A DNA stretch of 42,733 nt from the IMG/VR virus record IMGVR_UViG_3300050335_000080. The stretch is one strand, 5' to 3'. The stretch is from a virus. The translations under genes were made by a program, and so were the position numbers. This document shows, one piece after another, positions 6,650-27,864 of this stretch; the first letter of the stretch is position 1; the number at the start of each line of letters is the position of its first letter. The notes under the pieces were generated by a model. The model saw only the letters and a program-made list of their open reading frames with translations. It was not told the origin of the DNA and searched no databases.

Positions 6650-6652
6650 CGC

Positions 6653-9783: not shown

Positions 9784-9825
9784 ATAAAAGCAAGAAGGAT
9801 ATGAGGATTGCCCCATACCCTTCTT
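9784..9825 (-). terminator. Terminator-like hairpin after the tailspike gene
   Basis: The minus strand reads aagaagggtat-(loop)-atatccttctt, an 11-bp stem with one mismatch, followed by GCTTTTATT. Confidence 0.45.
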
Positions 9826-9837
9826 TATTAGTAGTTT

Positions 9838-12138: not shown

Positions 12139-12154
12139 TGCCAGTCCTCCTCAT

Positions 12155-12180
12155 TGAAAAGGGGGCCCTGAGGCCCCCTT
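12155..12180 (-). terminator. Hairpin (partial terminator?) between the giant gene and the tailspike gene
   Basis: 9-bp stem aagggggcc/ggccccctt (12159-12167 and 12172-12180) with a 4-nt loop. The minus-strand RNA would end ...CCCCCUUUUCA. Confidence 0.45.
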
Positions 12181-12181
12181 C

Positions 12182-15100
12182 CTATCGTCTGCCCTTCTTC
12201 TTCGGCGGCGTGATCACGAAATCCCACGGGCTCCAGTCCCGGTCATTGTCCAGGTACCGGCCCACCGCCTTCATGGTCCGCATGATCTGGTTGCTCGGCA
12301 GCCCGAACACCGGCCCGGAGATCTCCACCAGATGCCCCGGGATCTTCTCCCAGTCCGGCTCGTCTCCCCCGAGACCCCATTCCGCAGTCTTCAGAAGATC
12401 AGTCATCACCTTGGCCGCCGCCGTCCCCGCCGACGCCATGGGGCTCATCCGGTAGGAGAACCCGGACGACGCAGCGTTCACCACGTCCCGCACAAGGATC
12501 AGCTGGGACGCGCCGTACTGCAGCGTGGAATTCAGAGCCCACCGCAGAATGTCGTCGGGCTCGTCCTCCTCCGGCCCCCGGCCGGACATGAGGTCCTCCA
12601 GGAGCGCCGGCAGCACGTACATGGTCAGGGCAAAGGCCGCCAACCTGGGGATGTCCCTCACCCCGTGGCCCCGGAACCACTGCTCCCTGGTCTGCTGGAA
12701 CATGGAGCCGAAGGCCGTGTAGAACATGGTCATGCTCTTCCATGCCGGGGATCCCTGCTGGATCGCCGCCAGGTCCTTCGCCGCCCCCGTGTTCTGGGTG
12801 CTGCGCACCACGAAGTCCGCGTACTCCAGCGCCTTCGCCTCGTCGCCGTTGAACTCCAGCATGCCCTTGTCCCAGGCGGCCGTCCACACCGGCAGGCTCA
12901 CCGCCATATCCATCCATCCAGCGAACAGGAAGAAGGTCTCCTGCACCGCGCTCCACCTGCCCCGCACCGGCGACGCTGTCACGGCCTCCATGGCCGCCTT
13001 CACGTCCCGGTCGAAAGACCGTACCCGGTCCCGCAGGTACTCCGACTTTCCGAAGGCGAAATCCCGCATCTCTCCCCACTGGAAAGGGTTCCGCCAGAAG
13101 TTGAACGCCGCCAGCGCCGTGCGCTTGTACCCCAGCACCTGGACGGCGGGGAACCACCCGAAGACCTGCTTCGCCGCCGAGGAGAGGGACCATCCCAGGA
13201 TGGCCGCCGACGTCCGCCCCATCACCTTCTGCATCATCTGCTCGCCGTAGTTCGACGGCGTACGGTAGGCGTTCGCCAGCCCGTTCACCCACGGCTGGAA
13301 CTGCTTGAAGGCCTCCATGCCTATGGAGCCGATGATGGTCTTCTGCACCTGGGGATCCGCCAGCAGCTTGTTCAGGTCCCGGATGACGGGGCGGAAGTAC
13401 AGGTCATGGAGGGCGTCCCGCAGGTGCTCCGTCTCAACGCCGAGGTCCAGCCGCAGCAGCCGCTTCCCCCGTTCGCCGTGGTGCCGCTCTTTCGTGTGGC
13501 CGCTCTTGGTGTGCGCCCTGCTTCCCTGGGGGGCGTAGAGGGCCTTCGACGTTTCTTTCTCGGACACCACGAAGTTGTCCCAGTTCGACTCGGGCCGGAA
13601 CTTCAACGTCATATACCCGCCCCGGTAGGTCACCCCGGAGGCGCTCGTCACCGGCAAGTGCTTCACCTTCTTCGGCGTCACCCCGGTGACCTTCTTCGAC
13701 ATGGCCGCGATATCTCCCCAGTACGATTCGTTCAGGTCCCACACCGCCTGGGCGACCTCGTAATCCTTCTCTTCCAGCACCTGGGAAAAGAGCTTTTCCA
13801 CTTCGGCGGATCCCATGCGGAAGGCCGCCCAGTACTCCTCGTCGCTGCCGTAGTGGATCCATCCCTTGCCGGAATTCCACACGGTCCGGTCGAACCCGTA
13901 GCCGAACACCACCTCTTCCCTGTTCTCCAGGGCGCCCCAGTTCAGCAGCAGGGCGATCACGTTCTCCCTGCTCAGCACCAGGGGCTTCCCCGTGGACGGG
14001 TCGAGCTGCTGGAGGGTGTATTTCTTCTTCGTCATCTCCCCCCGCTCCTCAGACGAATAGACCGAAAAGATCGTCTCGAGGCGGCTCTTCGCCTCCCGCA
14101 TCCGTTTCATCTCCGCCCGCTCCGCCTTCACCACGGGATCGAAGAACGTCAACCAGGCGACCGCCATGTCCTTGAATCCGTCCAGCCTCCGGAGGATGTG
14201 CTCCACCCGGTCCGAGGACGCCAGGTATCTCCCGATCACCCCCGCGCCCCGGTAGTCCGGGTCCAGGGGCGTCTCCTTCATTGTGCCGTGGACCGCCGTC
14301 ACCGAGGCCTCCAGGTCCGCCTTCGCCTTCGCGAAATCCGCCTCCCGCTCCGCCGCCAGCAGCTTGTTCCGGCTGCGGCCGAAGTAGTCGATGGCCTCCA
14401 CGGCCTCCACAAGTTCCCGGAACTCCGTCACCGTCAGGTCCTTCCAGGACATTTTCCGGTCCTTGTAGTCGTCGGTGATCAGCCATTTTGCCACCGGCAG
14501 CTCGGCCCCCTGGTTGTTCGGGTCCGCGCCGATCTGGGCATTCGCGGCCGCCACCCACTCCCCCAGGTGGGGACGGTCCCCGCTCAGCTCGTCCTCGCCG
14601 TTGAAGCCGTACCGCTCCGTCAGGCCCATGACCTGGGCGAAATGCTCCTCCCCGATCACCGCCCGGAGGCGCTTCCGGCCGCCCCAGTACTTCTTCAGGT
14701 GTTTCTCGGCCTTCTCCATCTCGTCCCGCGCCGCCAGGGACGCCTGGTACAGCGCCGTGGACATCATCTCCCGGTCCTTCGCCGCCAGGGACTCCTCGTA
14801 CCGTCCCTTCAGAGCCAGCTCGTAGGCCTCCCTGCCCGCCTTCCTCGCCGCCGCCAGGTACCGCGACGCCGCCCGGGCGTCCCGCACCCGCTTATCTGCG
14901 ATCAGCTGCTCCGCCACCTCGCGGTACGCCCGCACCTGGGCCGACATCTGCCGGGCCTGCTGGGCCGTGGTCTCCCAGGCGGACGGCTGGTCCTCCATCT
15001 GCTCCGGACCGAACTGGAGATCCCCGATCTTCCGCGCCAGAATCGCCTGCTCCAGGGCCAGCAGCCGGAGCCTCGCCTCGCCGGAGAGCATCTCCTCCGC

Positions 15101-18100
15101 GAGGGTTTGCATTGTTTCCCGGTCGGACGCCTTGTTCTCCAGGTCCCGGACCTCGGCGTCAAGCCGGGCGTTCAGCTCCGCCTCGAAGGGATTCCTCGCC
15201 TCCTCCGCCAGGAGCGCCTGCAGTTCCTCCACGCCCCCCAGCCCCAGCAGATCCGCCGCCGCTTCCATGGGCACCGTGCCCTCGGGTGACGTCAGCCGGG
15301 CGTTCGCCTCGCCGTACCGCTCGTCCGGGGCGAGGTTGTACCCCGTATCGGCGAACTGCAGCAGGTCGTCGTAGGCCTTCCACGCCGCCGATTCCCCCCG
15401 CATCGCCTCCCGAATCCCAGGTTCCGCCGCTTCCCTGCGCTTCCGTGCCTGCTCCCGGGTCTCGGCGCCCAGCTCCTGCAGCAGCACCGCCAGCAGCTTC
15501 GTCTTCGCCTCGGAAGCCGCCTTGTCGGCAGCCTCCCGGAGGGCGTCGGCCTCCACCGTGGGGATCCCCTGCTGGATCAGGCGGGTCCGCAGCCTCTCCG
15601 ACTCCCGGAGAGACCGCGCCTGGTCCACCTCCTCCTCGGAGGCCAGCATCCGGTCCATCACCGCCCGCACCTCGTCGGACAGCTCCACGTCGGGAGCGCC
15701 CTTCAGCGCCTTGTACACCTTCGCCAGCCACCGCTTGAAATTGTCGAATATCTGCCGGAGTGCCCGGCTTGGGGCCAGCCCCTCGAAGAGGTACTGCTCG
15801 AAGCCCCGCGCCCAGTACTCCTCCGCCGCAACTCTCACAGCGTCGGCCAGCACGGCGTCGGCTTCCTTTCCCGCCAGGGCGGCCCGCACGATCCCCGCCC
15901 CGTCGGGAGCGGCGAACAGTGCCCGGACATCCTCCGATACGGTGCCGTGCTTCACGATCCACTCCGCCAGGTCCCTCGCGTGGCCTCCCCACCAGCTCCG
16001 GACGACCTCCCAGTCGCCGGCCGTTCGGGAATCCGCCTTCCCTGCCCTCACCAGGGACTCCAGGTCCCACAGGAACAAATGCCCCAGCTCGTGAAGGAAC
16101 GTGCTCCGGTTCGCCTTGGGCGTCAGGGTGATGGTGATGCCCCTGTCGCTCCGGTTAATGAAGCCCTGGGTGGGATATTGCCGTCCTCCGGCGCTTTTCT
16201 GGTAATAAGTCTGCTGGATGGCGATGGCCTTATCGTCCCAGATGACATAATTTCGGCTGTCGCCGCTTCCATCTCTGGACAAGGCGTCAAGATATCGAAT
16301 GCCCTTGATCCCTACACCGTTGAGAATTTCCGAAGCAGCCTGCCGATCATCGGCATAATTCTTTCCGATCGTAAATCCGGCATCCTGCGCCCTGCCCACC
16401 AGCTGATTGTAAACTTCCTTTCCGGTGGGGTTGCCTTTTAACCAACTCTTTACATTGATGCCTTCGACGGTCTTCAGAGCCTTTCTTATTGCCTCCGGTT
16501 GCTCGTTCAGAGGCTTGTCCCAGTCCAGCAGAACGTTGTCGTCTGGGATGTCAACCTCATAGATCTGTCCCGGACCCGGCCTTTCAATACGTATCTCATG
16601 ACCACGGAGCGATTCGACAAAATTGATGGCGTCGTCATACTGCTTCAGGCGGTTTGGAGAAAGATTCGGATTGCCTTCCTTGCGTCCACGCAGATATTCC
16701 TTCGCCCTGTCTATATCTCCGTCGGCGCCATTGAGCGCTGCGCGGATCATGGCCGGGAATGGAGCGGACGGCATTTTCTCTTTCAAGGAGGTGATGGAAG
16801 CTCCATCGATGAGAATGTCTGTCGGCTGCCTGTTGGTAACGCTCGTCCTATAATATTCCGCGACCTCTTTCTTGTCCGCGAAGTACAGCCCCCACCCGAA
16901 AGCCTGTGCTCTCTCCCCAGTTCCGATATATTCAGTCGAAAACTCGGTGAATCTGTGGGGTGAGCCATGGTAGGCCGTCTGGTACCGCATATCCTTCACG
17001 CCGGCGTCGAACCGCTGGGACAGTGGAATCACATTCCCCTGGTCGTCCCGGGTGATGCCGTCGGCCTTCTTCACCTGCCAGGGGAAGAAGGGGATCCACA
17101 CCGTATGCCCTTCCCCGGTGTACTTGCCCCCCTGGTCCTTGATGCCGTCGTACCCCATCCTGTGCAGCTCCCGGGACACCCAGTCGGGAACGCTCGTCCA
17201 CGCGAAGGACGTGCCGTCCCGCCGGTCCTGCGCCAGCAGCTCTATCCATTCCCTGCCGCTGAACCGCCGCTTGTCCCACTCGTCCACCACGTTTGCCGAG
17301 CCCCGTTTGCCCTTCGACGCCGCCTCCAGGGCGGCAAAATCATCGTCGGAAATAGCGCTCGTATCGAAGGGGGTCCGGATTGCCAGGTGAGCCTCCAGCA
17401 CCCCGGGCTGTTCCAGCCAGGGGGAGTCATACACCACGCCGTCCAGCCCCGCCAGCCGCAGAATCTCGAGGAACCGCTCCTCCTGGTCGAACAGCTCCCC
17501 ACTGTCCAGCCAGATCTCCACCGCCGCCGCCAGAACGTTCCCCCGCTTCTCCCGGAGCACAAAATCCCAGTGGCTCTTGTTCGTCATGCCGTACTCGTCG
17601 TCGGTGAGCCTGAACTCGTCCGCGACTTCTCCGTTTTCGTCCGTGTTCACCACGTGGGGCAGCTTGGCCGCCAGTTCCCGCCGCTTGTCCAGGGACAGGT
17701 ACAGCCACGCCTGGTCGATGGTCTTCGGCTTGCCCCGCCCCACGGCCACCTTGAACCATCCGGTGTACGACTCAGGGATCTCGATGCTTGTATCCGCCTT
17801 GTTCTTCGAGTAGTTCTCCGCGATAGTGGGGTCATCGGTGAAAAACGGCATGGGGCCGCTCGTCGCCCGCTCCGGCTTCAGCTCGTTCCCCAGCCGGTCA
17901 ATCCGCTTCGAGCCGTGGAACACATGCTGCACCGTGAAACCGGCTTCTTTTGCCGCCTCGTCCACCATCCCCTGGGCTGTTTCCATATCCCCGGCTTCCA
18001 CCGCCGCCAGGTACTCCGCATCAAGGGCGGCTCCGTCCTGGTACAGCGTCAGCTCAGTGTTCTTATCCGCCGCGTCCATAAGCTCCATGGCCGTCGGAGG

Positions 18101-21100
18101 TTGTTCCTCGAACAAAACGGCCTGGTCCGGAGAACCCTGGGCGTCCACGAGCCTCGCGTACCCCGCCAGAAACGACGCTATCCGCGATGGTGCCCGTTTG
18201 TGTTTTTCCAGGATGGAAAGGACCCTCTTCACGTCGTCGGAGATCCCCACTTCCTCGAACATATTCACCTGGGAGAGGAACTCCCGAACCGTCTCCCCTC
18301 GCTCCCGAAGGATCGACAGCTGATTGACCGCCTGTGAAACAGCGCCGGCGATAGAATACTCCGCCTTCAGCAGGCCGGCCTGTATCCGGTCCTCCATGAC
18401 CGCCAGGACGGGAGCGGCCTGGATCAGCCCCTTGTTCACGTTCTTGATGTTATCGTCTTCCGATTCCGCCATCCGCTCAAGGACCTGGTGATCACCGTAG
18501 GCCCTCGCCGCCAGGGCGTTCTGCAGCCGGACAACTCCCTGCCTGCTCAGCGTCCCCGCAGAAGTGGTCACCGTGCCCCACTCGTTCGGAGGAACGACCT
18601 TGCTCAAAAACTCCCGGACGAACGGCCTGTTTTCCGGGGCCAGCAGGTCACTCTCGGGCCGGAACGTCCCGAGGATCTTCTCGGACATCCGCTCCGCGTC
18701 GGCTCTCGCAGTCTCGGAGGCGGACATGGCCGCCACGGACGCCACGTTCGCTTCCTTCGCAAACTGCGCCCGGTCCACGTCCGTTTCCCTCACCCGCACC
18801 AGGACGGGAGATTTCACCGCGTCAATGTCGGCTTCCAACAGGCCGAAGCGCCCCGCGTTTTCCTTCAGCCAGGAGATGTATTTGCTTCGGGCCTTCTTTG
18901 TCGCGGCGCCGCGCTTGTACATCAGCTTTAGGGCGATGGTGCGGCCGTTGCCGCTCTCCACCACCATATCGTCCCCGACGATAGGAGCGCCGTCGGAGGC
19001 CATTCGGCTTTCCCCCAGCCGTTCGGGATCCAGCCCGGACAGGATCTTCTCCACCTGGGAGATCCCCGCCGCCCGGTCCCGCTTTCGGGGCTGAAGTTCC
19101 TTGGGGTATTTTTTGTTCACCGCGAAGGATTCCGTGTTGCTTGCGATCAGCTCGGATGCGTCTACCACACGGAAACGGGTCTGGATGGTCGTGCCTTCGC
19201 CGGTAACAACCTCACTTACAATTCCGTTGCTTTGTCCGGAATTGTCTGGTATAATTTTCTCGGAGGTGGTATCCATGGGCGTGAGAACATTTGAGTTCTT
19301 TGTTGATTCCGAGGATGACAACGTGTTCGCTATCGAAACCGGCCCCGACGGTAACTGGCTTCCCGCCGAGGAAGGAACCAAGGGCCCGAGGGTTTTCAAG
19401 ATTCTCTCCAACGCTTCTCTCAAGCCGCTTTCCTGGGAAACAGCTTCCAGGTGGAAACGCAGGGCCTGGAGGGTCTCCAAGGAAGAAGCGCTCAGGGCGG
19501 CAGGTGCGCTCTGACTGGTGGCAAGTGCGTTCTCGTAAAATTCCCTGCTTAGTGATCGGACTTTTTCCGCAAGTATTTTTTCATTTTCTATGTTTAATTG
19601 ATCCGCCAGCTTATACAGCTCGTGCCCTATGGAGTTTTTTACCTCCGTAATAGCTCTGTGATGTACCTGCAACTCCCCCACATATCCATTCGGAAGCCGC
19701 ACGTTCAACAGATAATCCCGATATCCTTCCGGCGTCGGTTTGCTCCACCGGTCCTTGATCCGGACAATCCGGTTATCATCCCTCAGGGACTCCACCGCAC
19801 GGAGCAAATCCTCTTCCGTCTCGAAGATCAGCGAACCGCCGAGAACATCCACCACCCGGCTGTAATCTCCGTTGTAGTCGTCGGGGTTGAGAGCCTTCCG
19901 GTTGACGCTTTCGGCCGTCTTCATCTCCGGCCGCATGAGCAATTCGCCGCCGAGCTGAGACTGCAGCTCTCCCATCAGCGAATTGAATTCCGGCTCGGCC
20001 TTCGTCGCCTCGGCGTACAGTGTGTCGATGTTTGTGACCGCCCTGTTTCGGACGGGCTCCACCTTCACCGGCACCGACAGGGCGCCTGCTTCATTCAGCG
20101 CCGTGTAGGTGTGGTTGCCGTCCGCTATGGAATACGTGCCGTCGCCGCGGTCCCATACGGTCAGGGGTTCCCGCTTGGGACCCTCTCCCCGCTTCGCCTT
20201 TTCCAGCCGGTCTTTTGCGGCGGCAAGGCGTTCGGGGTTTATGGTCTCGCTTGGGCGGAGGTTTCCCAGGGGAACCACCCTGCCGCCCTCAGCGCTCACA
20301 CCGTCGGCGTCTATGGCGGGTTGCGCCGGAGTGGCCGCTGGAGTCTTGGGCTCCGCCACCAGGCTCTTCGTGCCGTCGGCGTTGTCTCTGATCGTCAGGT
20401 TCAGCCTGTCCACCCACTCCTTCACGGTCGTGTTCCAGCGTGAGGCCGCCTGGACCGCGTAGGCTGCGAACAGGGTGCTGTAAGATTCCGCCTCGTTCTT
20501 CCCGAGCCACTTGATGCCCAGACCTTCCAGCTGGGTCTTCACCACCGACTTCGCGTAATCCACGTCGCTCGTCTCGGCCCCCGACTCCTCCAGATACTTC
20601 CGCGCCGCTTCGGAATCCTCATGCAGGCGGTTCAGCCGCTCCTCCTCGAAGGCTTTCGCTTCCCGTGCCGTCATGGCGCCCTCGCCAAGACGGAGGTCCG
20701 GAAGGAGCGCCTGGTTCAGTTCCGTGCCGGCGATCTTTTCCATGTACACGCCCGTGGGCAGCCAGACGTCGCCGCCTGTGGCCGCCGCTTCCCTCAGATC
20801 CTCCGGAGCGATGCCCAACGTCCCGGCCACCTCTTCCGGATCCGCGCCGATCTGCATCAGGGTCTCGGAGAATCCCTTCGCGTCGATGCCGATCTCCGCC
20901 ACGGGACCGTTCTTCGTCAGCTCCGTGGCATATTCGCCCATCCCCTCCGGCAGCCGCTTCAGCGTCTTCGACCCGGCCGTCGCGTCTCCGATAGCCTTGA
21001 AAAAGTCCACGTTCTTCCGGGCTTCCCTGGCGGCGCGGGCGTCGGCGTAAAAAGAAAGCCCCTGCCCGGGCATCATGCCCAGGGCGAAGGTGTGCAGCGC

Positions 21101-22669
21101 CTCCCACATTTCCACCCCCACGTCCGACACGATGTCGGCCAGCGGCATGGAGGAGTATTTCGCTATGTTCTGTACCTGTTCCCCTACGGGCAGGTCGGAC
21201 CAGGGGACCCCGCTCCTGATAGACTGCGCCACCCGTTCGGCATACGCGGAATCCTTCAGCTGCTCCCCCACGATGATCTGCCACAGGCGCTGCGCTCCCT
21301 CTGTGGCCACCTCGAAGGTCAGGTCTTTCCCGTACCCCTTGATGGCATCCTTCAGGGCGGTCTGGACCGTTTTTGTCTTCAGCATTTCGGCCACGGCCTG
21401 CTTGCTCAGGAATGCCGCCCCTCCGGGGAACGCCTTGATGATCCGCCCCATCTGCAGTGATTCCAGGAAACTTGCTCCGGCCCCGTACAGGAAGGCCCCA
21501 ATTCGGGCGTACTCCTCCGGCAGGGGATTTCCGTCCTCATCTTTGATTCCGAGGTATTCCTGCAGCGCGAGGCCGGCCTCGACGGAAAACCCTTCTTCCA
21601 TGACGCCGAGCCCGAAGCCGGTTCTGGCCATCAAGCCGAAGGCCCCGGGGATGGTGACAATCTCTTCCGGGAAGGCGGCCTGCGGTCCCATGTTCCCCAG
21701 AACGCCGGCAGCCAGGGCAGCGAGAGCCCCATACTGGAGCCCCCTGTACGCACCCCTCGAAAACTGGGGTAGTCGCTGCCCGGCCATAGTCCCGGCCCCG
21801 TACAGCATCTTGTCCCAGGAGCCGTCTCCCTTATTGGCGTTTTTCGCCATCTCGGCGTCAAGCACGGCAAGACGGGCCCTTTGCTCATCGGTCATCTTGC
21901 CGGTGAAGAGGACGGTGGTCCATATCCTGCCGCTCTCCGACATGGCCGTGGCGTTCCGGAAGCCTCTTCCGGGGAGGGTGGTCTCCCTGTCGTGGGTCTC
22001 CTGCTCCACCAGAGATTCGAGGGCCATCAGGGCGGGAAGGTCGTCCCAGACGGCGGCCATCCTCCCGGGGATCTGCAGCCAGGAGCGCAGCTTCGGCCCC
22101 ACCTTCTCCAGGGTGTCCAGCTGGTCCAGGGTCATCTTCTGCCGCCATGCCTCATCCCGGACCTCCGGATCCTGCACCATCATCCCCACGGGGATCCGCG
22201 TGGCGAGGCTCGCCTGCACGTTCCTGGAGTACATCTCCGGGTCGTAGGACTGGGCGTCCTTGAACATCCCGGCAAGAAAACGGGTGGAGTCGCTGAACCG
22301 CCTCTCCCCGTCCACCAGCGCCTTCTCTTTCGGCGACAGCTCCACGAACATGCCGCTTCCGGGAGCGGCCGGGTTCAGGCGCTCCTCTCCACGGAACGGC
22401 TCGTCCTCGTAGGGTGACAGGTCGATCCCGCCGCTCCGGGCGAGAGAGTCCAGGTCGGCCGCCGGTGCCGGACTCAGGTCCGCCTCGGCGTCAACAGCCT
22501 CGGTGCGGAGATCCGTCAGCCGGTCCCGGGCACTCGCTACCTCGGGGATCGAGGACACGTTTATCCCGCCGAACAGGCCTCCTGCAGACTCCTCGGGGGG
22601 CTCGGTCTCCCCGGCCCCCCCGTTCTGCAGTATTCTTTTCTCTTCGTCAGTCAGCGGGATAAACGCCAT
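12182..22669 (-). CDS. Giant (3,495 aa) polyvalent internal-virion/ejection protein in the T7 gp16 position
   Basis: A single 10,488-nt ORF. RBS GAGGAGG lies 6 nt upstream of the ATG at 22669. Multiple enzyme-like motifs are listed as separate features. It is flanked by gp15-like and tailspike genes. Confidence 0.9.
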   Translation of the reverse strand: MAFIPLTDEEKRILQNGGAGETEPPEESAGGLFGGINVSSIPEVASARDRLTDLRTEAVDAEADLSPAPAADLDSLARSGGIDLSPYEDEPFRGEERLNPAAPGSGMFVELSPKEKALVDGERRFSDSTRFLAGMFKDAQSYDPEMYSRNVQASLATRIPVGMMVQDPEVRDEAWRQKMTLDQLDTLEKVGPKLRSWLQIPGRMAAVWDDLPALMALESLVEQETHDRETTLPGRGFRNATAMSESGRIWTTVLFTGKMTDEQRARLAVLDAEMAKNANKGDGSWDKMLYGAGTMAGQRLPQFSRGAYRGLQYGALAALAAGVLGNMGPQAAFPEEIVTIPGAFGLMARTGFGLGVMEEGFSVEAGLALQEYLGIKDEDGNPLPEEYARIGAFLYGAGASFLESLQMGRIIKAFPGGAAFLSKQAVAEMLKTKTVQTALKDAIKGYGKDLTFEVATEGAQRLWQIIVGEQLKDSAYAERVAQSIRSGVPWSDLPVGEQVQNIAKYSSMPLADIVSDVGVEMWEALHTFALGMMPGQGLSFYADARAAREARKNVDFFKAIGDATAGSKTLKRLPEGMGEYATELTKNGPVAEIGIDAKGFSETLMQIGADPEEVAGTLGIAPEDLREAAATGGDVWLPTGVYMEKIAGTELNQALLPDLRLGEGAMTAREAKAFEEERLNRLHEDSEAARKYLEESGAETSDVDYAKSVVKTQLEGLGIKWLGKNEAESYSTLFAAYAVQAASRWNTTVKEWVDRLNLTIRDNADGTKSLVAEPKTPAATPAQPAIDADGVSAEGGRVVPLGNLRPSETINPERLAAAKDRLEKAKRGEGPKREPLTVWDRGDGTYSIADGNHTYTALNEAGALSVPVKVEPVRNRAVTNIDTLYAEATKAEPEFNSLMGELQSQLGGELLMRPEMKTAESVNRKALNPDDYNGDYSRVVDVLGGSLIFETEEDLLRAVESLRDDNRIVRIKDRWSKPTPEGYRDYLLNVRLPNGYVGELQVHHRAITEVKNSIGHELYKLADQLNIENEKILAEKVRSLSREFYENALATSQSAPAALSASSLETLQALRFHLEAVSQESGLREALERILKTLGPLVPSSAGSQLPSGPVSIANTLSSSESTKNSNVLTPMDTTSEKIIPDNSGQSNGIVSEVVTGEGTTIQTRFRVVDASELIASNTESFAVNKKYPKELQPRKRDRAAGISQVEKILSGLDPERLGESRMASDGAPIVGDDMVVESGNGRTIALKLMYKRGAATKKARSKYISWLKENAGRFGLLEADIDAVKSPVLVRVRETDVDRAQFAKEANVASVAAMSASETARADAERMSEKILGTFRPESDLLAPENRPFVREFLSKVVPPNEWGTVTTSAGTLSRQGVVRLQNALAARAYGDHQVLERMAESEDDNIKNVNKGLIQAAPVLAVMEDRIQAGLLKAEYSIAGAVSQAVNQLSILRERGETVREFLSQVNMFEEVGISDDVKRVLSILEKHKRAPSRIASFLAGYARLVDAQGSPDQAVLFEEQPPTAMELMDAADKNTELTLYQDGAALDAEYLAAVEAGDMETAQGMVDEAAKEAGFTVQHVFHGSKRIDRLGNELKPERATSGPMPFFTDDPTIAENYSKNKADTSIEIPESYTGWFKVAVGRGKPKTIDQAWLYLSLDKRRELAAKLPHVVNTDENGEVADEFRLTDDEYGMTNKSHWDFVLREKRGNVLAAAVEIWLDSGELFDQEERFLEILRLAGLDGVVYDSPWLEQPGVLEAHLAIRTPFDTSAISDDDFAALEAASKGKRGSANVVDEWDKRRFSGREWIELLAQDRRDGTSFAWTSVPDWVSRELHRMGYDGIKDQGGKYTGEGHTVWIPFFPWQVKKADGITRDDQGNVIPLSQRFDAGVKDMRYQTAYHGSPHRFTEFSTEYIGTGERAQAFGWGLYFADKKEVAEYYRTSVTNRQPTDILIDGASITSLKEKMPSAPFPAMIRAALNGADGDIDRAKEYLRGRKEGNPNLSPNRLKQYDDAINFVESLRGHEIRIERPGPGQIYEVDIPDDNVLLDWDKPLNEQPEAIRKALKTVEGINVKSWLKGNPTGKEVYNQLVGRAQDAGFTIGKNYADDRQAASEILNGVGIKGIRYLDALSRDGSGDSRNYVIWDDKAIAIQQTYYQKSAGGRQYPTQGFINRSDRGITITLTPKANRSTFLHELGHLFLWDLESLVRAGKADSRTAGDWEVVRSWWGGHARDLAEWIVKHGTVSEDVRALFAAPDGAGIVRAALAGKEADAVLADAVRVAAEEYWARGFEQYLFEGLAPSRALRQIFDNFKRWLAKVYKALKGAPDVELSDEVRAVMDRMLASEEEVDQARSLRESERLRTRLIQQGIPTVEADALREAADKAASEAKTKLLAVLLQELGAETREQARKRREAAEPGIREAMRGESAAWKAYDDLLQFADTGYNLAPDERYGEANARLTSPEGTVPMEAAADLLGLGGVEELQALLAEEARNPFEAELNARLDAEVRDLENKASDRETMQTLAEEMLSGEARLRLLALEQAILARKIGDLQFGPEQMEDQPSAWETTAQQARQMSAQVRAYREVAEQLIADKRVRDARAASRYLAAARKAGREAYELALKGRYEESLAAKDREMMSTALYQASLAARDEMEKAEKHLKKYWGGRKRLRAVIGEEHFAQVMGLTERYGFNGEDELSGDRPHLGEWVAAANAQIGADPNNQGAELPVAKWLITDDYKDRKMSWKDLTVTEFRELVEAVEAIDYFGRSRNKLLAAEREADFAKAKADLEASVTAVHGTMKETPLDPDYRGAGVIGRYLASSDRVEHILRRLDGFKDMAVAWLTFFDPVVKAERAEMKRMREAKSRLETIFSVYSSEERGEMTKKKYTLQQLDPSTGKPLVLSRENVIALLLNWGALENREEVVFGYGFDRTVWNSGKGWIHYGSDEEYWAAFRMGSAEVEKLFSQVLEEKDYEVAQAVWDLNESYWGDIAAMSKKVTGVTPKKVKHLPVTSASGVTYRGGYMTLKFRPESNWDNFVVSEKETSKALYAPQGSRAHTKSGHTKERHHGERGKRLLRLDLGVETEHLRDALHDLYFRPVIRDLNKLLADPQVQKTIIGSIGMEAFKQFQPWVNGLANAYRTPSNYGEQMMQKVMGRTSAAILGWSLSSAAKQVFGWFPAVQVLGYKRTALAAFNFWRNPFQWGEMRDFAFGKSEYLRDRVRSFDRDVKAAMEAVTASPVRGRWSAVQETFFLFAGWMDMAVSLPVWTAAWDKGMLEFNGDEAKALEYADFVVRSTQNTGAAKDLAAIQQGSPAWKSMTMFYTAFGSMFQQTREQWFRGHGVRDIPRLAAFALTMYVLPALLEDLMSGRGPEEDEPDDILRWALNSTLQYGASQLILVRDVVNAASSGFSYRMSPMASAGTAAAKVMTDLLKTAEWGLGGDEPDWEKIPGHLVEISGPVFGLPSNQIMRTMKAVGRYLDNDRDWSPWDFVITPPKKKGRR
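15650..16177 (-). other. Domain in the giant protein: zincin-like metallopeptidase (MPTase-PolyVal-like, aa ~2165-2340)
   Basis: STFLHELGHLF, with the HExxH at nt 16079-16093 (aa 2193-2197), and a downstream AAEEYWARGFEQYLFEG as the candidate third-ligand Glu helix. Confidence 0.55.
16205..16990 (-). other. Domain in the giant protein: ART-PolyVal-like module 2 (aa ~1894-2155)
   Basis: AYHGSPHRFTEFS (H1901), GWGLYFADKKEVAEYY, and GIKGIRYLDALSRDGSGDSRNYVIWDDKAIAIQQ. Landmark order is the same as in module 1. Confidence 0.5.
17000..17962 (-). other. Domain in the giant protein: ART-PolyVal-like module 1 (aa ~1570-1890)
   Basis: VFHGSKRIDRLG (H1585), PMPFFTDDPTIAENYSK, and GYDGIKDQGG..HTVWIPFFPWQVKKADGITRDDQGNVIPLSQRFDAGVKDMRYQ. 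Confidence 0.5.
18905..19177 (-). other. Domain in the giant protein: second ParB-superfamily domain (ddrB-ParB-like, aa ~1165-1255)
   Basis: RFRVVDASELIASNTESFAVNKKYPKELQPRKRDRAAG...APIVGDDMVVESGNGRTIALKLMY. The GNGR core lies at nt ~18943-18957. Confidence 0.5.
19580..20002 (-). other. Domain in the giant protein: RelA/SpoT-homologue (RSH) synthetase-like nucleotidyltransferase (aa ~890-1030)
   Basis: RPEMKTAESVNRKAL (Syn1-like), VDVLGGSLIF (DxxGxR-like, with Arg replaced by Ser), PEGYRDYLLNV (GYRSLH-like), GELQVHH (EIQIRT-like) and IGHELYK (HxxYK). Confidence 0.6.
20051..20278 (-). other. Domain in the giant protein: ParB/Srx-like N-terminal-type domain (aa ~798-873)
   Basis: LRPSETINPERL...PLTVWDRGDGTYSIADGNHTYTALNEAGALSVPVKV. 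The DGNH(R/T) core and the overall length fit ParB-like nuclease/NTPase domains. Confidence 0.55.
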
Positions 22670-22682: not shown

Positions 22683-24500
22683 CTATCGATACAGGTATTC
22701 CTCCGGCGGGATCCATTTGTCCGTGCCGTTGGTGAACACGTCGAGCTCCCGGCTGTACGTGTACCCCTTCGGCACCAGGTACGCCGGAATTTTCCAGGTG
22801 GTGCCCAGGATCCAGTTGAGCATGCCCTTCTTCGCCGTTTCCTTTTTCATCAGTTCGTCGGCGATCTTCAGTTTTTCCTCAGTCTTGTCGGGACCAAGGT
22901 TCCTGGTCCTTGTCAGGAAGGCGCTCATGAAAAGCGGCAGCTCCTCTTCCCGGAGCTTCGCCTCCTTGTAGCGCCTTTTCACCTCGCCGTTCACATAGCT
23001 CTGGGCCGGGTCCTTACTGTCCTCCATGTACTTCTTCAGTTCGTTGACCTTGGCCTGGCTCTGCCTGGAGGCCGCCGACAACAGCTGTTCCCTGGTGGTG
23101 ATCTCCCCACGGTCGATGGCGTCCCGGATGGCCCACTCCTCCGCCAGGGCGGCCTGTTTCTCCGCCTCGTCGTAGGTCGGTTTGTGCACCTTCCGGAAGA
23201 CGGACTGCGCCCGGGCGAGCTGGGCGTCCGTGGCTCCCTTCTCCTTCATTGTGGCCAGAAACTCCTCTTCCGAAGCAGTCGCAAGCGCCAGGTCCTCGGC
23301 CTCCCCCTCGAAGACGGCTCTATGCTCATTTATCGCCCGCCGTACCGTCCCCGGAGGCACCCCGTACTGCTCGCCCAGGGCGAGGATCTCCTCTTCGTCC
23401 TTCGCGAAGTCGGCCCGGACCCCGAAGTCCTGGGCGTTCCACCGCATCCAGTTGTTCACCAGGGTACGTCTCTTTTTCTCCGGCACGCCCATACGTGCGA
23501 GCTGCGCGTCCAGTTCCTTCGCGGAAGAGGCCCCCTCCACCGTATCGGCGATCCGTTCATTCCTCACCCGGGTTGCCTCCGCCTGCGCCGTGCGCCGTTC
23601 GGAGTACCGTGTCTTCACCGCCGTGACCAGGCTGTTCTCCCTGTCCCCCTCGTAGTGCTCCCGGATATACCGGAGCGCCGCGGTTTCGGACCCGAAGCGC
23701 TTCACCAGCTTGTCCGCCTCTTCCTGGGTCCAGATCACGGCCACCTGGGCATCGATGGCCTTCGCCCACTTCGCGTGGTTCGTGCCGTCGATGGCGCCCT
23801 TGTTTTTCTTGAAGTACGCTTCCGCAGCCTTCGGGTCCGTCTCCAACCACTGGGCCAGGCGGGCCTCGTGGGCTGCCGAGTGCAGCGCCTTCACCTTGGC
23901 CGTGACCACTTCCTCCCCCTGGTCCGCCAGGAGGGTCAGCAGGGCGTTCTCCGCAGTGTCCAGCTGCGCCTCGAATATGCCGTCGTCGGCGTAGTTTGCC
24001 GCGATGGTGTTCACGGCGTTCGTCACCGCCTGGTTCGTCACCTCCACCCGGTAGTTCTGGAACTCCGCCCGCTCATGCCGGGCGATGGAATCCACCTTGC
24101 TGCTCCGGTTCCGGAGGATGTATTTCGAGAAGAGGCTCCTCTGGTTCTCGTTTTCCAGCCCCTTCATGAGATCGGATTCGAGCTTTCCGAACCACTCCGT
24201 CGCCTCGCCGCTCATGCCCTTGGCGCCTTTGCCCTTGCGGTTGAAGAGCCCGGAATCCGGGTCGTTCAGGTACTTCGTGGTCAGCTCGTCCCACGAGTTC
24301 GCCGCCTCGAGTACGGCCGCGTCGTCGGCCTTCTGCCGCATGTCAAGGGCGATCCTGACGCCCTCGTCGGCCACGTCGCCGAGCATGCGCCCGGCCTGCT
24401 GCATCGCCTTCGCCTCGAACCCGCCGGCCGCCCCCTCGGGCAGCGCCACGGGCCGGGACACCTCCGGGGAGAGCCCCCGCTCGTACACCGGGACCCTCAT
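22683..24500 (-). CDS. Internal virion (core/ejection) protein, gp15-position
   Basis: 605 aa, helical and charged. It lies between the gp14-like gene and the giant gene. The assignment rests on synteny with the T7 core genes, and no enzymatic motif was seen. Confidence 0.6.
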   Translation of the reverse strand: MRVPVYERGLSPEVSRPVALPEGAAGGFEAKAMQQAGRMLGDVADEGVRIALDMRQKADDAAVLEAANSWDELTTKYLNDPDSGLFNRKGKGAKGMSGEATEWFGKLESDLMKGLENENQRSLFSKYILRNRSSKVDSIARHERAEFQNYRVEVTNQAVTNAVNTIAANYADDGIFEAQLDTAENALLTLLADQGEEVVTAKVKALHSAAHEARLAQWLETDPKAAEAYFKKNKGAIDGTNHAKWAKAIDAQVAVIWTQEEADKLVKRFGSETAALRYIREHYEGDRENSLVTAVKTRYSERRTAQAEATRVRNERIADTVEGASSAKELDAQLARMGVPEKKRRTLVNNWMRWNAQDFGVRADFAKDEEEILALGEQYGVPPGTVRRAINEHRAVFEGEAEDLALATASEEEFLATMKEKGATDAQLARAQSVFRKVHKPTYDEAEKQAALAEEWAIRDAIDRGEITTREQLLSAASRQSQAKVNELKKYMEDSKDPAQSYVNGEVKRRYKEAKLREEELPLFMSAFLTRTRNLGPDKTEEKLKIADELMKKETAKKGMLNWILGTTWKIPAYLVPKGYTYSRELDVFTNGTDKWIPPEEYLYR

Positions 24501-24501
24501 G

Positions 24502-25086
24502 TCAGCGCCCCCTGCGGAACAGGTGCCGGTAGCCGGTGGCGTTGTACGTCAGGGGAGACCCTGCCGCCGCCGATCCGCCCACGTTCCACCCCGACGCCGT
24601 GCCGCCCTTGAAGGGGTTGTACCCCATCTTGTACCAGCTGCTCGCCACCGAGGCACCCGTCCCCAGCAGGGACGTGACGGCGCTGAAGGTGGCGGCGCTC
24701 TTCGCAGACGATGCGGCCGAACGGGCGTTGTTCGCCTCGTCCTGCAGGTCCGCCCGCCGCACCTGGGCGTTGTACCGGAGGGTGGCCACGTCCTTCATCC
24801 CTTCCCCCTCCGTGTCGAGCACGGACGCCAGGGGCGTGCCCGTGCCGGGGGAAAATCCAGATGCCCCGTACCCCGCCCGCTGTTCCCCCTTGATCACGGC
24901 CATCTTCCGCTTCAGCCGGGCCTCCTCCTGCCCGGCGGCCGTCACTTCCTCGTGGGCGCGCCGTTCCGCCTGGGCGGCCTGGGCTTCGTACTGGGCGGCC
25001 TGGGCCTGACCGGCCTGGTAGGTCCCGATGGCCGTAATGACGCCCGCGGCGGCCTGCAGCACGCTAAAAGTTGCCGCTAGACTCAT
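24502..25086 (-). CDS. Internal virion protein, gp14-position (hydrophobic N-terminus, Ala/Gln/Gly-rich)
   Basis: The likely ATG is at 25086, after GAGAGG. MSLAATFSVLQAAAGVITAIG is a hydrophobic helix. The C-terminus is Gly/Ser/Ala-rich. Confidence 0.6.
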   Translation of the reverse strand: MSLAATFSVLQAAAGVITAIGTYQAGQAQAAQYEAQAAQAERRAHEEVTAAGQEEARLKRKMAVIKGEQRAGYGASGFSPGTGTPLASVLDTEGEGMKDVATLRYNAQVRRADLQDEANNARSAASSAKSAATFSAVTSLLGTGASVASSWYKMGYNPFKGGTASGWNVGGSAAAGSPLTYNATGYRHLFRRGR

Positions 25087-25552
25087 TTTTTTCACCTCTC
25101 ATCCAGGCGTAATGGAACGGCAGCCCGTCGATGCCGTAGGGCGCCGGATCCTCTATATTGAAACCGAGCCATTTCATCCACTTCACCGATGTCTCGTTCC
25201 GGGCGTCCACCCAGTTCACCAGCAGGCTGTAGCTCGATTTCACCGTTTTCAAGTAGTCCCTCACCGTCCGCAGGTAGGGCAGCGCCGCCCGTTCGATTTC
25301 TTCCGTGGCCAGCTGCCAGGGATATCCCACCCCCCCCAGCATCCCCCCGGGAAAGCACCCCGCCATGCCGATGGCCTTTCCGTCCCACGTGCCCACCCAC
25401 AGCAGCGGACTCTTCTTCGCCGCCAGCCACAGCCCCTCGTAGGGGAGCAGCCTCGAGGCCGCCCAGATCTCCTGTTTGTCGGATAGCCTCATCCCGTCGG
25501 CGATGACGGCCACGTCTCCCTCACGCAGAGGGCGCACCTCGAAGCGTCCCAT
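25064..25552 (-). CDS. Small virion-assembly/internal protein at the gp13 position (possibly a GNAT-like fold)
   Basis: ATG at 25552, 7 nt after GGAGG and 2 nt after the upstream stop. The 162-aa sequence MGRFEVRPLREGDVAVIADGMRLSDKQEIWA... resembles the DUF2833/gp13-type pattern from memory only. Confidence 0.5.
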   Translation of the reverse strand: MGRFEVRPLREGDVAVIADGMRLSDKQEIWAASRLLPYEGLWLAAKKSPLLWVGTWDGKAIGMAGCFPGGMLGGVGYPWQLATEEIERAALPYLRTVRDYLKTVKSSYSLLVNWVDARNETSVKWMKWLGFNIEDPAPYGIDGLPFHYAWMRGEKNESSGNF

Positions 25553-25554
25553 CC

Positions 25555-27864
25555 TTACCCTCCGATGTCCGCGGAGTGGAGTATGCCGAGCAATGTGAAC
25601 GGCAGGGGGTACGCCTGCTTCACATACAGCCGCCCGCCGTTCCGGTCCCATCCGCTGTCCAGCGCCACCGGTGCCGTGTCCCCCGTGAACAGGGGCTGGG
25701 GATCATACGTGATAAACTCCGGCTTCACTTCCACCAGGAGGTCCTTCCGGTCCCCAGGCGCCACGGCCAGCCCCCTCGTGTCCCGCACCCGCAGGATCAC
25801 GCCGGGGATCCGGACTCTCCTCCCCTGCATGGTCCCGTCCCGGAGCTGGGCGTCCAGCTGCAGGGTCTCGATTGCCGCCTCGTAGGGCAGCCCAACCGTC
25901 ACCACGCCCGCCTCGTAGGGCAGGGATATTTCCCCGTCCGTCACCGTCAGGTCCGAAACCACGCCGCCGTCCGCCAGGGCGGTCACCGTGCGCCCCTCCA
26001 GCCAGTCCAGGCCGGAGATGGACGTCACCGGCGCCCCGGAATACCGGCCGCCGCAGTCCAGGAACATGGCCTTCGTCACGTCGCCGGATCCGCCCTCGAT
26101 GGGCACCCGGTCCGCCAGCCGCTCGAGATATACCCGTTCCGATCCGCCGATCTCCCGCCGCACTGCGAAGTACACCTCGTCCCGGGAGTCCCCGGGGATG
26201 GAGCAGACCGACTCGTATTTCCCGGCCGTGGACCGGTGGGTCCAGGCCCACACATCGTGCTCCCGCAGGTAGGTCAGCACGTTTATGGTCCCGTCGTCCA
26301 TGACCGCCCAGATGAGGCTCCACGGCTGCTGCTGGTATGCCCAGGAGACCACCCGCTTCTCCTCGAACAGGTGCTCCGCGAAGAGGGAGAGGTCCCGGTT
26401 GCCGTACCCGTCCTCCTCGTAGGTGTAGCTCAGGGCGTAGACGCCGTTCCCCTTCTCCTGGACGAAAACCACGGAGTTCGAGGCCGTCAGCGCCTCCAGT
26501 TGGCAGCTGCCCACGTACCCCTGCACCTCGATCTGCATCTGCTTGTAGGTGAAGGCCCCCTGGCTCCCCGGAGACACCCTCCACTCCGAGCCGGAGGTCA
26601 GCACCAGGAGGTCCCGCAGGCTCACCATGTTCCGGATCCGGTTCACAGCCCGAGACGTCATCTGGGCCGAAATGGCGTTGTCGTCCGTCTGGGGCGCGGA
26701 GACCTTGAAGCTGGTGTAGTTCCCCGTCTCGGAAAACCACAGCTTGTTCGGGAAAGAGGGGCTGCCGCCGAAGGCGAGCCGGTCCTGGTAGAACTGCACG
26801 CTGTAGGGGTAGCCGAGCCTGGGGCTCCAGGCCCCCCGCGCCCACAATTTTGTGGCCGCCGTGCTGTAGAGCTTGTTCACCACCGTCCCCGTCACCACGG
26901 TGCCGCTCGTGTACCCCGTGATCCGCACGATGCCGTTGTTGATCCGCGCGGCGGCGTTGATGGTCACGATGCAGTCCTCATCGGCCCGCTTGGTGTAGGT
27001 CACCCGGACCTTCACCGGCTCCTGGTCGTCGGTGAGCTCCTCGCTGAAGCTGTAGTCCATTTGCCCCTCCTCCACAGCGTTTCCCACCAGGGTCCGGAAC
27101 TGCAGCCACGTGGTGCCGCCGTCATAGCTCCGCTCGAGCTTCAGGGTCCCGTCCCAGTCGCCGGAGGTGCGGAAGTTCCAGTCCCCCTCCACGTCGATGG
27201 ACGGGGACGTTCCGGAGGCGCTGAAGGTGTGTTTCAGGCTGTTCTCAGGCACCCGCTGGCTCACCCGCACCAGCTCCCCCACGTCGGTGGACTGCCAGAT
27301 GGACGCGCTCGCCGTCAGGGTAACCGTCCCTCCCGCCGTCAGTGTGCCCGTGGGGGTGATGGTAGTGCTGCCCGTGTTCTCGTCCAGGAACGGCCCCAGC
27401 TTGAAGGCGTAGTCGTTCAGCTCCCAGTCGTCGTGGCCGTACCGCTCCAGCTGCTTCGGGGGGACGGTGGGGTGCACCAGGTAAAGCACGTCGGCGCTCT
27501 GGGTGTAGCCGATGTCGGGCAGCATGTCCTCTGTGTAGGGGGTGGCCACCTCGTAGGGAACGGCCCCGTCCATTACGTAGTCCCCGTCCATAATCACCCG
27601 CAGGTACTCGTGGCCGAACTCCAGCGCGTAGGCCTGCTCCACCGAATAGACGAAGGGAATCAGGCGCACCGTCCGCGACGGGTACTTTGTCTGCCCCACG
27701 TACCAGGTGCCCGGAAGGTTGCTGACCCCTCCGTGGGGATGGACGAACACGTTCTTCGCTAGGCGCAGCCCCGTCTGGTACTTCGCCAGGTCCGTCCGCG
27801 CCCACAGGGCTGGAGACAGCTCCCCCCCGGCGAAGGACGCCTGGAGCACTCTCAGGTCCGCCAT
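25555..27864 (-). CDS. Tail tubular protein B (nozzle, T7 gp12-like)
   Basis: The N-terminus LQASFAGGELSPALWARTDLAKYQTGLRLAKNVFVHPHGGVSNLPG is the characteristic start of podovirus tubular-B proteins. Its 769-aa size and its position after the tubular-A gene fit. Confidence 0.8.
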   Translation of the reverse strand: MADLRVLQASFAGGELSPALWARTDLAKYQTGLRLAKNVFVHPHGGVSNLPGTWYVGQTKYPSRTVRLIPFVYSVEQAYALEFGHEYLRVIMDGDYVMDGAVPYEVATPYTEDMLPDIGYTQSADVLYLVHPTVPPKQLERYGHDDWELNDYAFKLGPFLDENTGSTTITPTGTLTAGGTVTLTASASIWQSTDVGELVRVSQRVPENSLKHTFSASGTSPSIDVEGDWNFRTSGDWDGTLKLERSYDGGTTWLQFRTLVGNAVEEGQMDYSFSEELTDDQEPVKVRVTYTKRADEDCIVTINAAARINNGIVRITGYTSGTVVTGTVVNKLYSTAATKLWARGAWSPRLGYPYSVQFYQDRLAFGGSPSFPNKLWFSETGNYTSFKVSAPQTDDNAISAQMTSRAVNRIRNMVSLRDLLVLTSGSEWRVSPGSQGAFTYKQMQIEVQGYVGSCQLEALTASNSVVFVQEKGNGVYALSYTYEEDGYGNRDLSLFAEHLFEEKRVVSWAYQQQPWSLIWAVMDDGTINVLTYLREHDVWAWTHRSTAGKYESVCSIPGDSRDEVYFAVRREIGGSERVYLERLADRVPIEGGSGDVTKAMFLDCGGRYSGAPVTSISGLDWLEGRTVTALADGGVVSDLTVTDGEISLPYEAGVVTVGLPYEAAIETLQLDAQLRDGTMQGRRVRIPGVILRVRDTRGLAVAPGDRKDLLVEVKPEFITYDPQPLFTGDTAPVALDSGWDRNGGRLYVKQAYPLPFTLLGILHSADIGG

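Follow-up and report, generated by a model that had tools for sequence, protein, structure and literature searches.

A RelA/SpoT-homolog synthetase module in a giant polyvalent protein of a podovirus prophage

Iyer, Burroughs, Anand, de Souza, and Aravind (2017, J Bacteriol, PMC5512222) reported RelA/SpoT domains in polyvalent proteins of the phage type and proposed that these domains act as alarmone triggers. The proteins concerned are huge multi-effector products of phages and prophages in which RelA/SpoT is combined with DdrB-ParB, ADP-ribosyltransferase (ART), and LPD domains, and they were predicted to be delivered together with DNA and to elicit an alarmone-like response. Phage head-protein (p)ppApp synthetases, the MuF-fused Apk2 enzymes, have been biochemically characterized, and they belong with a Tas1/RelV-like clade of toxic or exported alarmone synthetases whose members differ in product: RelV of Vibrio cholerae and VpEAS of Vibrio parahaemolyticus make (p)ppGpp only, Tas1 and Apk2 make (p)ppApp only, and SaEAS, with the acceptor-loop (syn3) motif GYKGLN, makes both. 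Turnover in this clade reaches about 1e5 molecules per minute (SaEAS), and the enzymes are toxic in the cytoplasm, as reported for RelV and VpEAS (PMC12691689). Here we analyze a RelA/SpoT-homolog (RSH) synthetase module that lies inside a 3,495-amino acid (aa) protein encoded in the IMG/VR virus record IMGVR_UViG_3300050335_000080, the whole 42,733-nucleotide stretch of which is referred to as the window. The locus adds an example of an established phenomenon and is not a new kind of system. Its novelty is less than was supposed in the sequence-only reading of this DNA that preceded the analysis, since the 2017 paper had already reported such domains from phage polyvalent proteins and Apk2 has been characterized.

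Identity and fold of the RSH module

The module is enclosed in a single uninterrupted open reading frame (ORF) on the minus strand, at 12182-22669 (-), which encodes the 3,495-aa giant protein. Residues 890-1030 of this protein match window positions 19580-20002 exactly, and the plus strand of that interval is riddled with stop codons and holds no open frame. The sequence-only reading had assigned these residues to an alarmone-synthetase or toxic small alarmone synthetase (toxSAS)-like domain and had quoted five motifs from it; all five are present, in the order given, in the minus-strand ORF. The extent it proposed covers the motifs and is too short for the domain, the true module being larger, at aa ~881-1084 (19418-20029, -), with a catalytic core followed by a C-terminal helical sub-domain.

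A search against the PF04607 profile, suggested at the outset as a check, gave a significant match to a 187-aa excerpt of the protein (E = 5.6e-5, 23.8 bits, profile positions 3-105 of 113), although one that falls short of the curated Pfam cutoff; PF04607 was not reported when the whole 3,495-aa protein was scanned. With the single module as query, a sequence search of the PDB found Tas1 (E = 0.0023) and Bacillus subtilis YwaC (E = 0.0053) as its best matches. A family profile (A2) was then built from 40 sequences, in which six columns are invariant, corresponding to K917, K925, D941, G982, Y983, and E999 (here and throughout, residue numbers are those of the giant protein). PF04607 is matched by 23 of the 40 members, the best at E = 7e-11, and the family profile matched 23 PDB entries, every one an RSH synthetase: Tas1/Apk1 (6OX6) at 1.4e-23, RelSeq at 9.5e-10, RelP at 1e-9, and RelA at 3e-9. 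The module was also sought in NCBIfam and PHROGs, where it had no match, and PADLOC returned one 13.9-bit match for it and nothing meaningful.

An AlphaFold2 (AF2) model of aa 876-1089, with a mean predicted local distance difference test score (pLDDT) of 92.6 and a predicted template modeling score (pTM) of 0.87, shows a five-stranded sheet with helices on its flanks, D941 standing just before strand 2 and E999 on strand 5. This is the nucleotidyltransferase sheet with catalytic Asp and Glu positions that the sequence-only reading had named as a structural check. The 50 PDB matches listed by Foldseek for the model are all members of the RSH family, and the best template modeling score (TM-score) is that of Tas1, at 0.63/0.68 (query-normalized TM-score, TMq, 0.63; rmsd 4.3 Å). 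By sequence profile, predicted fold, and conserved catalytic Asp and Glu, the module is an RSH synthetase domain, and the assignment made at first sight is borne out.

Active site and nearest characterized enzymes

Residue roles in the five synthetase motifs (syn1 to syn5, all on the minus strand) were assigned by alignment to RelSeq and by counting conservation over 156 related domains. In the alignment, R913, K917, S921, and K925 of syn1 (RPEMKTAESVNRK, aa 913-925; 19895-19933) are equivalent to RelSeq R241, K243, S247, and K251 and are predicted to bind the donor-ATP phosphates; 153 of the 156 domains keep K917, and the same number keep K925. The RelSeq alignment and the family counts likewise place the predicted catalytic, Mg-binding D941 in syn2 (VDVLGGS, aa 940-946; 19832-19852), and this residue and E999 are found in all 156. 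The predicted acceptor-base loop, syn3 (EGYRDYLLNV, aa 981-990; 19700-19729), is recognized by its GYRD signature and contains the putative stacking Tyr Y983; G982, Y983, R984, and D985 recur in 152, 154, 145, and 150 domains, respectively. In syn4 (GELQVHH, aa 998-1004; 19658-19678), assigned from the family counts and its position on strand 5, E999 is the predicted catalytic Glu, and it is the very residue that had been chosen for substitution in the sequence-only reading. It is accompanied by Q1001 (140/156) and by H1003 (112/156), which stands in place of the canonical Arg. The family counts also define syn5 (HELYK, aa 1016-1020; 19610-19624), with H1016 conserved in 147 and Y1019 in 151 domains.

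The module thus deviates from the RSH canon in syn2 (Arg to Ser), syn3 (SxH to DxL), and syn4 (Arg to His). That the Arg of the DxxGxR motif is a Ser, S946, had been correctly noticed, and loss of activity had been offered as one possible meaning. We considered S946 as the mark of an inactivated enzyme and ruled it out: Ser (83 domains) or Thr (52) occupies this position in 135 of the 156 relatives, Arg in five, and because Ser/Thr is the norm of the subfamily, S946 is uninformative about loss of activity. Ser or Thr is also found here in the active enzymes Tas1 (DLARNT) and RelV/VpEAS (DLARAT). With all five syn motifs in place and D941 and E999 invariant among its relatives, the module is apparently catalytically competent.

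The syn3 loop distinguishes the known alarmone synthetases, canonical (p)ppGpp synthetases having GY-x-S-x-H and the (p)ppApp synthetases Apk1 and Apk2 having GY-x-G-x-N. The module reads GYRDYL, with D985 and L987 where the Apk enzymes have Gly and Asn, so that the Apk1/Apk2 signature is absent; the Ser at the end of its syn2 is nevertheless similar to the Thr that closes syn2 in that signature. In the file of 1,369 Apk1-like sequences supplied with Ahmad et al. 2025 (PMC12691689 supplement), the string "GYRD" occurs 329 times, and RelV (Q9KSN2) and VpEAS (Q87Q55) in that supplement carry the same DLARAT / GYRD / EVQLH signature. The module has the corresponding Dxxxx[S/T], GYRD, and ExQxH elements and lies nearer to RelV and VpEAS than to Tas1 or the housekeeping RSH enzymes. 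When compared with the module by BLASTP and with the A2 profile, respectively, the C-terminal domain of Bordetella phage PHB04 scored 72.4 and 146.0 bits, VpEAS 67.8 and 121.8 bits, RelV 57.8 and 120.4 bits, Tas1 36.6 and 90.1 bits, and RelSeq 29.3 and 42.6 bits; an SaEAS-like sequence had no BLASTP match and a profile score of 37.3 bits. In a neighbor-joining tree calculated on 98 core columns, the subclade of the giant protein forms a deep branch in a GYRD superclade together with RelV/VpEAS, Amycolatopsis sequences, and PHB04, and Tas1 and SaEAS fall outside it. A provisional assignment of Tas1 as the nearest enzyme, with (p)ppApp as the consequent product, was withdrawn because RelV and VpEAS carry GYRD and score higher.

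RelV and VpEAS are therefore the closest characterized enzymes by sequence, at 29% identity, and Tas1/Apk1, a type VI secretion system effector (PDB 6OX6), is the closest solved structure. RelV and VpEAS are small proteins that stand alone and bear a Sec signal peptide, whereas the module is embedded in a longer chain, at aa 881-1084; in syn3 they read DLN and the module DYL, and they have Arg at the position of Tas1 R330 where the module has Gly. The Apk enzymes resemble it in using an RSH domain as the warhead of a delivered protein, the carrier of Apk2 being a MuF phage head protein, and Tas1/Apk1 and Apk2 share with it the Ser/Thr in place of the DxxGxR Arg. In the Apk1 and Apk2 proteins, however, the domain is C-terminal and not internal to a 3,495-aa polypeptide, and their loci continue with Tis1/IapK and often Aph1 immunity genes, of which none was found here. 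By its sequence relationships, the module is a predicted nucleotide 3′-pyrophosphokinase of the Tas1/RelV-like toxic/exported alarmone synthetase clade. Its predicted product is (p)ppGpp and/or (p)ppApp, sequence alone being unable to decide between G and A as the acceptor.

Polyvalent carrier, cassette exchange, and prophage setting

The giant protein carries several unrelated effector domains in one polypeptide, as polyvalent proteins do, and three of them belong to Pfam families that were defined on polyvalent proteins. From the N terminus these are a predicted LPD22 polyvalent-protein-associated domain at aa 135-225 (21995-22267, -; PF18834, 28.6 bits, exactly at the cutoff); a ParB/Srx-fold domain at aa 785-878 (20036-20317, -), directly upstream of the RSH module and recognized by its profile match to SbnI; the RSH module itself; a ddrB-like ParB domain at aa 1158-1294 (18788-19198, -; PF18763, E = 6.6e-32); and an ART-PolyVal ADP-ribosyltransferase-like motif region at aa 1899-1942 (16844-16975, -; PF18760, E = 1.2e-10 with the whole protein, the profile being covered in part). 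The RSH module is separated from the ddrB-like domain by a Ser/Thr/Pro-rich linker at aa 1085-1150 (19220-19417, -), evident in the translation, and the pLDDT drops at this end of the model. There seem to be two ART-like units, one marked by FHGS (aa 1584) and the other by YHGS (aa 1900); Pfam sees only the second, and that in part. A search of the ART region against PDB sequences gave no matches.

Behind this array lies a conserved C-terminal body of ~1,350 aa (aa 2148-3495; 12182-16228, -), which matches phrog_9880 at E = 3e-226 and by tblastn is common to 48 phage records of ~40-kb podoviruses, among them Xanthomonas phage CP2, Pseudomonas phage AF, and Bordetella, Caulobacter, and Cobetia phages. 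The body aligns to AF_016, a 2,213-aa protein of Pseudomonas phage AF. Where the effector array ends and the body starts there is an HExxH motif (HELGH, aa 2193-2197; 16079-16093, -), which the alignment shows to be kept in AF_016 (HELGH) and in a Synergistota ortholog (HETGH). This segment had no Pfam match; the motif is a candidate for the zincin-like metallopeptidase hub of polyvalent proteins, and at the junction of array and body it may be a processing metallopeptidase. Judged from these matches, the giant protein is a ~2,150-aa N-terminal effector array mounted on a conserved body of putative core or ejection type.

The ParB/Srx-like domain is a conserved partner of the RSH module at the sequence level. 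It adjoins the module in ~19 of 150 family representatives, mostly 3-20 aa upstream and in three cases downstream. A profile of the domain matched SbnI, a ParB/Srx-fold serine kinase, at E = 5.6e-9, followed by Noc, a serine kinase, sulfiredoxin, and ParB. The DGxHR motif of the fold reads DGNHT in the giant protein, the Arg not being kept. An AF2 model of the two domains together had a pLDDT of 86.9 and a pTM of 0.82.

In an exhaustive profile search, the RSH family numbered 3,406 cluster representatives at E ≤ 1e-3, of which 1,134 reached E ≤ 1e-10. Among the top 150 representatives, 16 are proteins of more than 2,000 aa, and the RSH domain is C-terminal in 71 and internal in 45 of its 158 occurrences. 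Sampled carriers contain eCIS_core (4/10), WXG100_2 with Gln-deamidase and ART, Ntox3, or ART-PolyVal, and by these domain contexts the RSH subfamily is a predicted warhead family used by many delivery systems. Several proteins have two RSH modules, namely P0008 (3,127 aa; modules at aa 2299-2499 and 2615-2806), P0007, P0018, P0037, P0040, P0048, and P0083. In BFVD, the model of the module is matched by uncultured-phage proteins labeled RelA/SpoT, DdrB-like, and ART-PolyVal-like. The only relative from a cultured phage is in Bordetella phage PHB04, a myovirus (L007, MF663786.1, 35166-37431), where the portal gene is followed by genes for a 493-aa protein that has a GYRD-type RSH domain at its C terminus, a 69-aa ORF, and a small alarmone hydrolase (SAH)-like hydrolase, which from its gene content is an Apk2-type toxin/immunity layout. 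The 493-aa and 69-aa ORFs are annotated as hypothetical, and the hydrolase as a bifunctional (p)ppGpp synthetase/hydrolase.

A word-indexed protein search gave one match to the module (P0001) and one to the N terminus (P0151). An ortholog of equal length and 90.7% identity (P0003) is encoded in the same gene order on a JGI metagenome contig (L001), whose locus carries the Pfam families T7_gp14, Phage_nozzle, and Bbp16/Bbp19. The matches in genomes lie in metagenome-assembled genomes (MAGs): of Anaerolineae, with 82% identity over the module, of Aminobacteriaceae, with 61%, and of Synergistaceae. The Aminobacteriaceae copy (L003) is in a prophage, since it lies on a 659-kb contig, and it has the RSH module at the same position. 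This ortholog is split into 7352-15184 (2,610 aa) and 15224-17065 (613 aa), the second part corresponding to window aa 2879-3491 at 63% identity, and the split is either genuine or a sequencing error of the MAG. In the Anaerolineae MAG (L002), a 1,932-aa protein at 967-6765 has the same modules in another order, with window aa 617-772, 1549-1902, 2161-2254, and 705-1382 mapping to its residues 2-157, 601-954, 1167-1268, and 1237-1914, which reflects either domain shuffling or misassembly. The RelA/SpoT domain reported by Iyer et al. (PMC5512222) came, in contrast, from prophages of Spirochaetes and Epsilonproteobacteria; a further difference is that the array here is fused to a conserved body in the gp16 position, which belongs to a BPP-1/T7-like podovirus. 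No cultured phage matched the giant gene by Megablast, a search of the C-terminal 772 aa against genome contigs gave none, a further profile (A3) had no relative in viral contigs, and exact look-up of the giant protein and integrase sequences found no record.

Comparison with the L001 ortholog reveals a recombined cassette. Nucleotide identity between the two genes is ~99% over aa 1-900 and 2250-3495 and falls to 59-86% over aa ~920-1150 (19220-19912, -), a segment delimited by sliding identity that contains the RSH core and its tail. In the RSH segment the synonymous divergence (dS) is 0.78, against 0.05 in the flanks, and the ratio of nonsynonymous to synonymous divergence (dN/dS) is 0.23. 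The drop in identity, together with this dN/dS, indicates that the warheads are swapped by recombination and yet are under purifying selection, the module being a recombination hot spot. A second mosaic segment, with 47-88% nucleotide identity to L001, spans aa ~1650-2250 in the ART region (window ~15920-17720, -).

By its gene content, the window is a temperate prophage of a BPP-1/T7-like podovirus. Reading down through the coordinates, it encodes a primase/helicase (40059-42251), a dUTPase (37051-37701), the small terminase (35716-36564), the large terminase (33167-35719, -; 850 aa), the portal (31272-33155), a protease/scaffold (30296-31183), the major capsid protein (29273-30277), the tail tubular proteins A (27866-28462) and B (25555-27864), two internal virion proteins (25064-25651 and 24502-25095, -; phrog_308 and phrog_418), a 605-aa lysozyme-like protein recognized by PHROG matches (22683-24500, -), the giant gene, the tail fiber (9838-12138, -), an endolysin (6653-7036), and an integrase (3842-5272). 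The giant gene is thus placed among virion genes, after those for the internal virion proteins and lysozyme and before that for the tail fiber, and the order is the same in phage AF, where AF_016 follows "internal virion protein A," "internal virion protein B," and "structural lysozyme." It is also the order around gp14-gp15-gp16 of T7, in which tail tube A and B genes are followed by internal virion proteins, a lysozyme-bearing protein, a very large protein, and the tail fiber; T7, by contrast, has no counterpart of the 2,150-aa N-terminal effector array. Gene order alone points to a virion or injected core protein. The literature yielded nothing usable on the virion proteomics of AF-like phages, and the 605-aa neighbor had no match among PDB sequences.

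Other features of the prophage were recorded in passing. The tail-fiber gene (9838-12138), considered together with 9602-9793 (-), stands out by its composition, the fiber having 45% G+C against 63-66% for the prophage; only its N-terminal ~130 aa match fiber or spike adaptor families, and it looks like a recently acquired host-range cassette. In its N-terminal half, the large terminase has matches both to terminase ATPase families and to DnaC-like/primase P-loop PHROGs, and 850 aa is unusually long for this protein. Beyond the integrase, an ORF at 2337-3737 (+) encodes a 466-aa protein with an HNH nuclease domain (ZorE-like matches) and a C-terminal WYL domain; it lies beside two helix-turn-helix regulators (922-1368 and 1458-1901) in a region of 40-50% G+C, which may be a defense-type moron or the host flank. 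A transfer RNA (tRNA) scan for the attachment site found none.

Possible roles of the module in infection

Our preferred reading, held with moderate confidence, is that an active RSH pyrophosphokinase of the Tas1/RelV-like type is one warhead of a core-positioned polyvalent protein and is delivered to alter the host at infection. The capsid core would take up a few copies of the giant protein, which would then be ejected into the cell at infection. There the module, tethered or released by way of the HExxH at the junction, would move the β,γ-pyrophosphate of ATP to the 3′-OH of a purine nucleotide (GTP/GDP and/or ATP/ADP), yielding (p)ppGpp and/or (p)ppApp with the very rapid turnover that typifies the clade. 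Only a few copies of an ejected protein are present in a T7-type core, against a cellular ATP content of a few million molecules; at ~1e5 turnovers per minute, a handful of enzymes could consume a sizeable share of the pool each minute. Draining of ATP and GTP combined with a flood of alarmone would stall host growth and macromolecular synthesis, either during takeover or in a way that biases the decision between lysis and lysogeny. Self-intoxication during late expression might, speculatively, be avoided if the full-length or packaged protein keeps the enzyme inactive; in Apk2, toxicity is lower for the complete protein than for the domain on its own.

Several observations weigh against this reading. 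As a lone sequence, the module scores below the Pfam gathering cutoff for PF04607 (23.8 bits against 27). Tas1 R330 and SaEAS R124 contact ATP, and both of the known donor-ATP-contacting Arg positions have lost the Arg in the giant protein, being S946 and G944; at 944, the equivalent of Tas1 R330, Arg occurs in 90 of the 156 related domains, Ala in 28, and Gly in only 36. Because GYRDYL fits neither the SxH nor the GxN pattern, the product, and activity itself, cannot be read from the sequence. The giant protein has no detectable sequence similarity to solved core proteins: a phmmer search of the C-terminal 1,226 aa against the PDB for likeness to T7 gp16 or another solved core protein gave nothing at E ≤ 1. 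Finally, a Pfam scan of the window ORFs for a Tis1/IapK- or Aph1-type immunity gene found no HD-domain or SAH protein, and tblastn with the PHB04 small protein and SAH found nothing in the window or in loci L001-L006, a very divergent small immunity protein being possible. Without an immunity gene, tolerance of an active enzyme by the producing cell would need another explanation.

The two altered Arg positions and the sub-threshold Pfam score are what might be expected if the module were a pseudo-enzyme that the core protein retains as a spacer with a structural or nucleotide-binding role. We regard this as very improbable, because D941 and E999 are invariant and K917, K925, Y983, Q1001, H1016, and Y1019 conserved in the 156 relatives, the G944 subclade included, because dN/dS is 0.23 even after cassette replacement, and because the active enzymes RelV/VpEAS and Tas1 likewise have Ser/Thr at the position of 946. 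The odd syn3 loop, which matches neither alarmone signature, could instead belong to a tRNA-targeting toxSAS of the FaRel2, CapRel, or PhRel type, which would pyrophosphorylate the tRNA 3′-CCA and stop translation without making free alarmone. Phage-encoded PhRel enzymes exist, and CapRel and FaRel2 were found by Foldseek at E ~ 1e-5, but their structural fits are poorer than that of Tas1 (TMq 0.42-0.54 and rmsd 6.7-9.1 Å against 0.63 and 4.3 Å), the family profile finds no tRNA-modifying toxSAS in the PDB at E ≤ 0.01 while matching Tas1 at 1e-23 and housekeeping RSH enzymes at 1e-9, all characterized members of the Tas1/RelV-like clade act on free nucleotides, and a pZFD-type antitoxin was not found; tRNA as the target is thus unlikely.

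An active enzyme might also have no role in injection and act in the producer or lysogen, or in neighboring cells after lysis, as a toxin of competition or superinfection exclusion, a role already under discussion for MuF-fused Apk2. The role of the head-fused Apk2 is still open, with interbacterial antagonism an explicit alternative; PHB04, the only cultured-phage relative, has its domain in an Apk2-like toxin/immunity/hydrolase locus; and the family consists mostly of secreted-toxin domains. A toxin tolerated by a lysogen is hard to square, however, with the lack of an immunity or hydrolase gene by the giant gene or in the orthologous loci, and the position of the gene inside the late structural operon, between core and fiber genes, and the phage-type polyvalent architecture, predicted to be co-injected, also speak for injection, so that we consider a role confined to producer or neighbor doubtful. 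Another proposal joins the module to its neighbor: the ParB/Srx-like and RSH domains would together make up one enzyme whose acceptor or product is new, the kinase-like domain binding or preparing the substrate for pyrophosphorylation. The recurrent adjacency in either order, the ATP-dependent ParB/Srx-fold kinases such as SbnI as the closest solved relatives of the partner, the two-domain model, and the unusual DVLGGS and GYRDYL loops of the subclade agree with it; against it, the ParB/Srx-like domain is absent from most family members, the Arg of DGxHR is not conserved, and pTM alone does not demonstrate an interface between ParB/Srx and RSH, and we judge such an enzyme improbable. Equally a long shot is an extended scheme in which a ParB/Srx-like plus RSH cassette, of a subclade that lacks both donor-ATP-contacting Arg residues and has the unique acceptor loop GYRDYL, would make or act on something other than classical (p)ppGpp/(p)ppApp; a handful of molecules, injected by the podovirus core protein, would reprogram the host on entry, with the recombination hot spot arising from an arms race with host countermeasures.

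Beside the precedents, what the locus offers is a set of modest additions: another host lineage, a podovirus carrier in the gp16 position, membership of the GYRD group, the ParB/Srx partner, cassette swapping, and a setting in which no immunity genes were found. The GYRD subfamily to which it belongs is widespread, with the 329 occurrences in the Apk1-like file and at least 1,134 representatives at E ≤ 1e-10, and RelV and VpEAS are the characterized members shown here. The locus is a tractable one, its enzyme being mounted on a structural scaffold that is already known, in a temperate podovirus. Should the module prove to be active and to be injected, it would put to a direct test the idea, computational since 2017, that phages co-inject alarmone synthetases to control the host.

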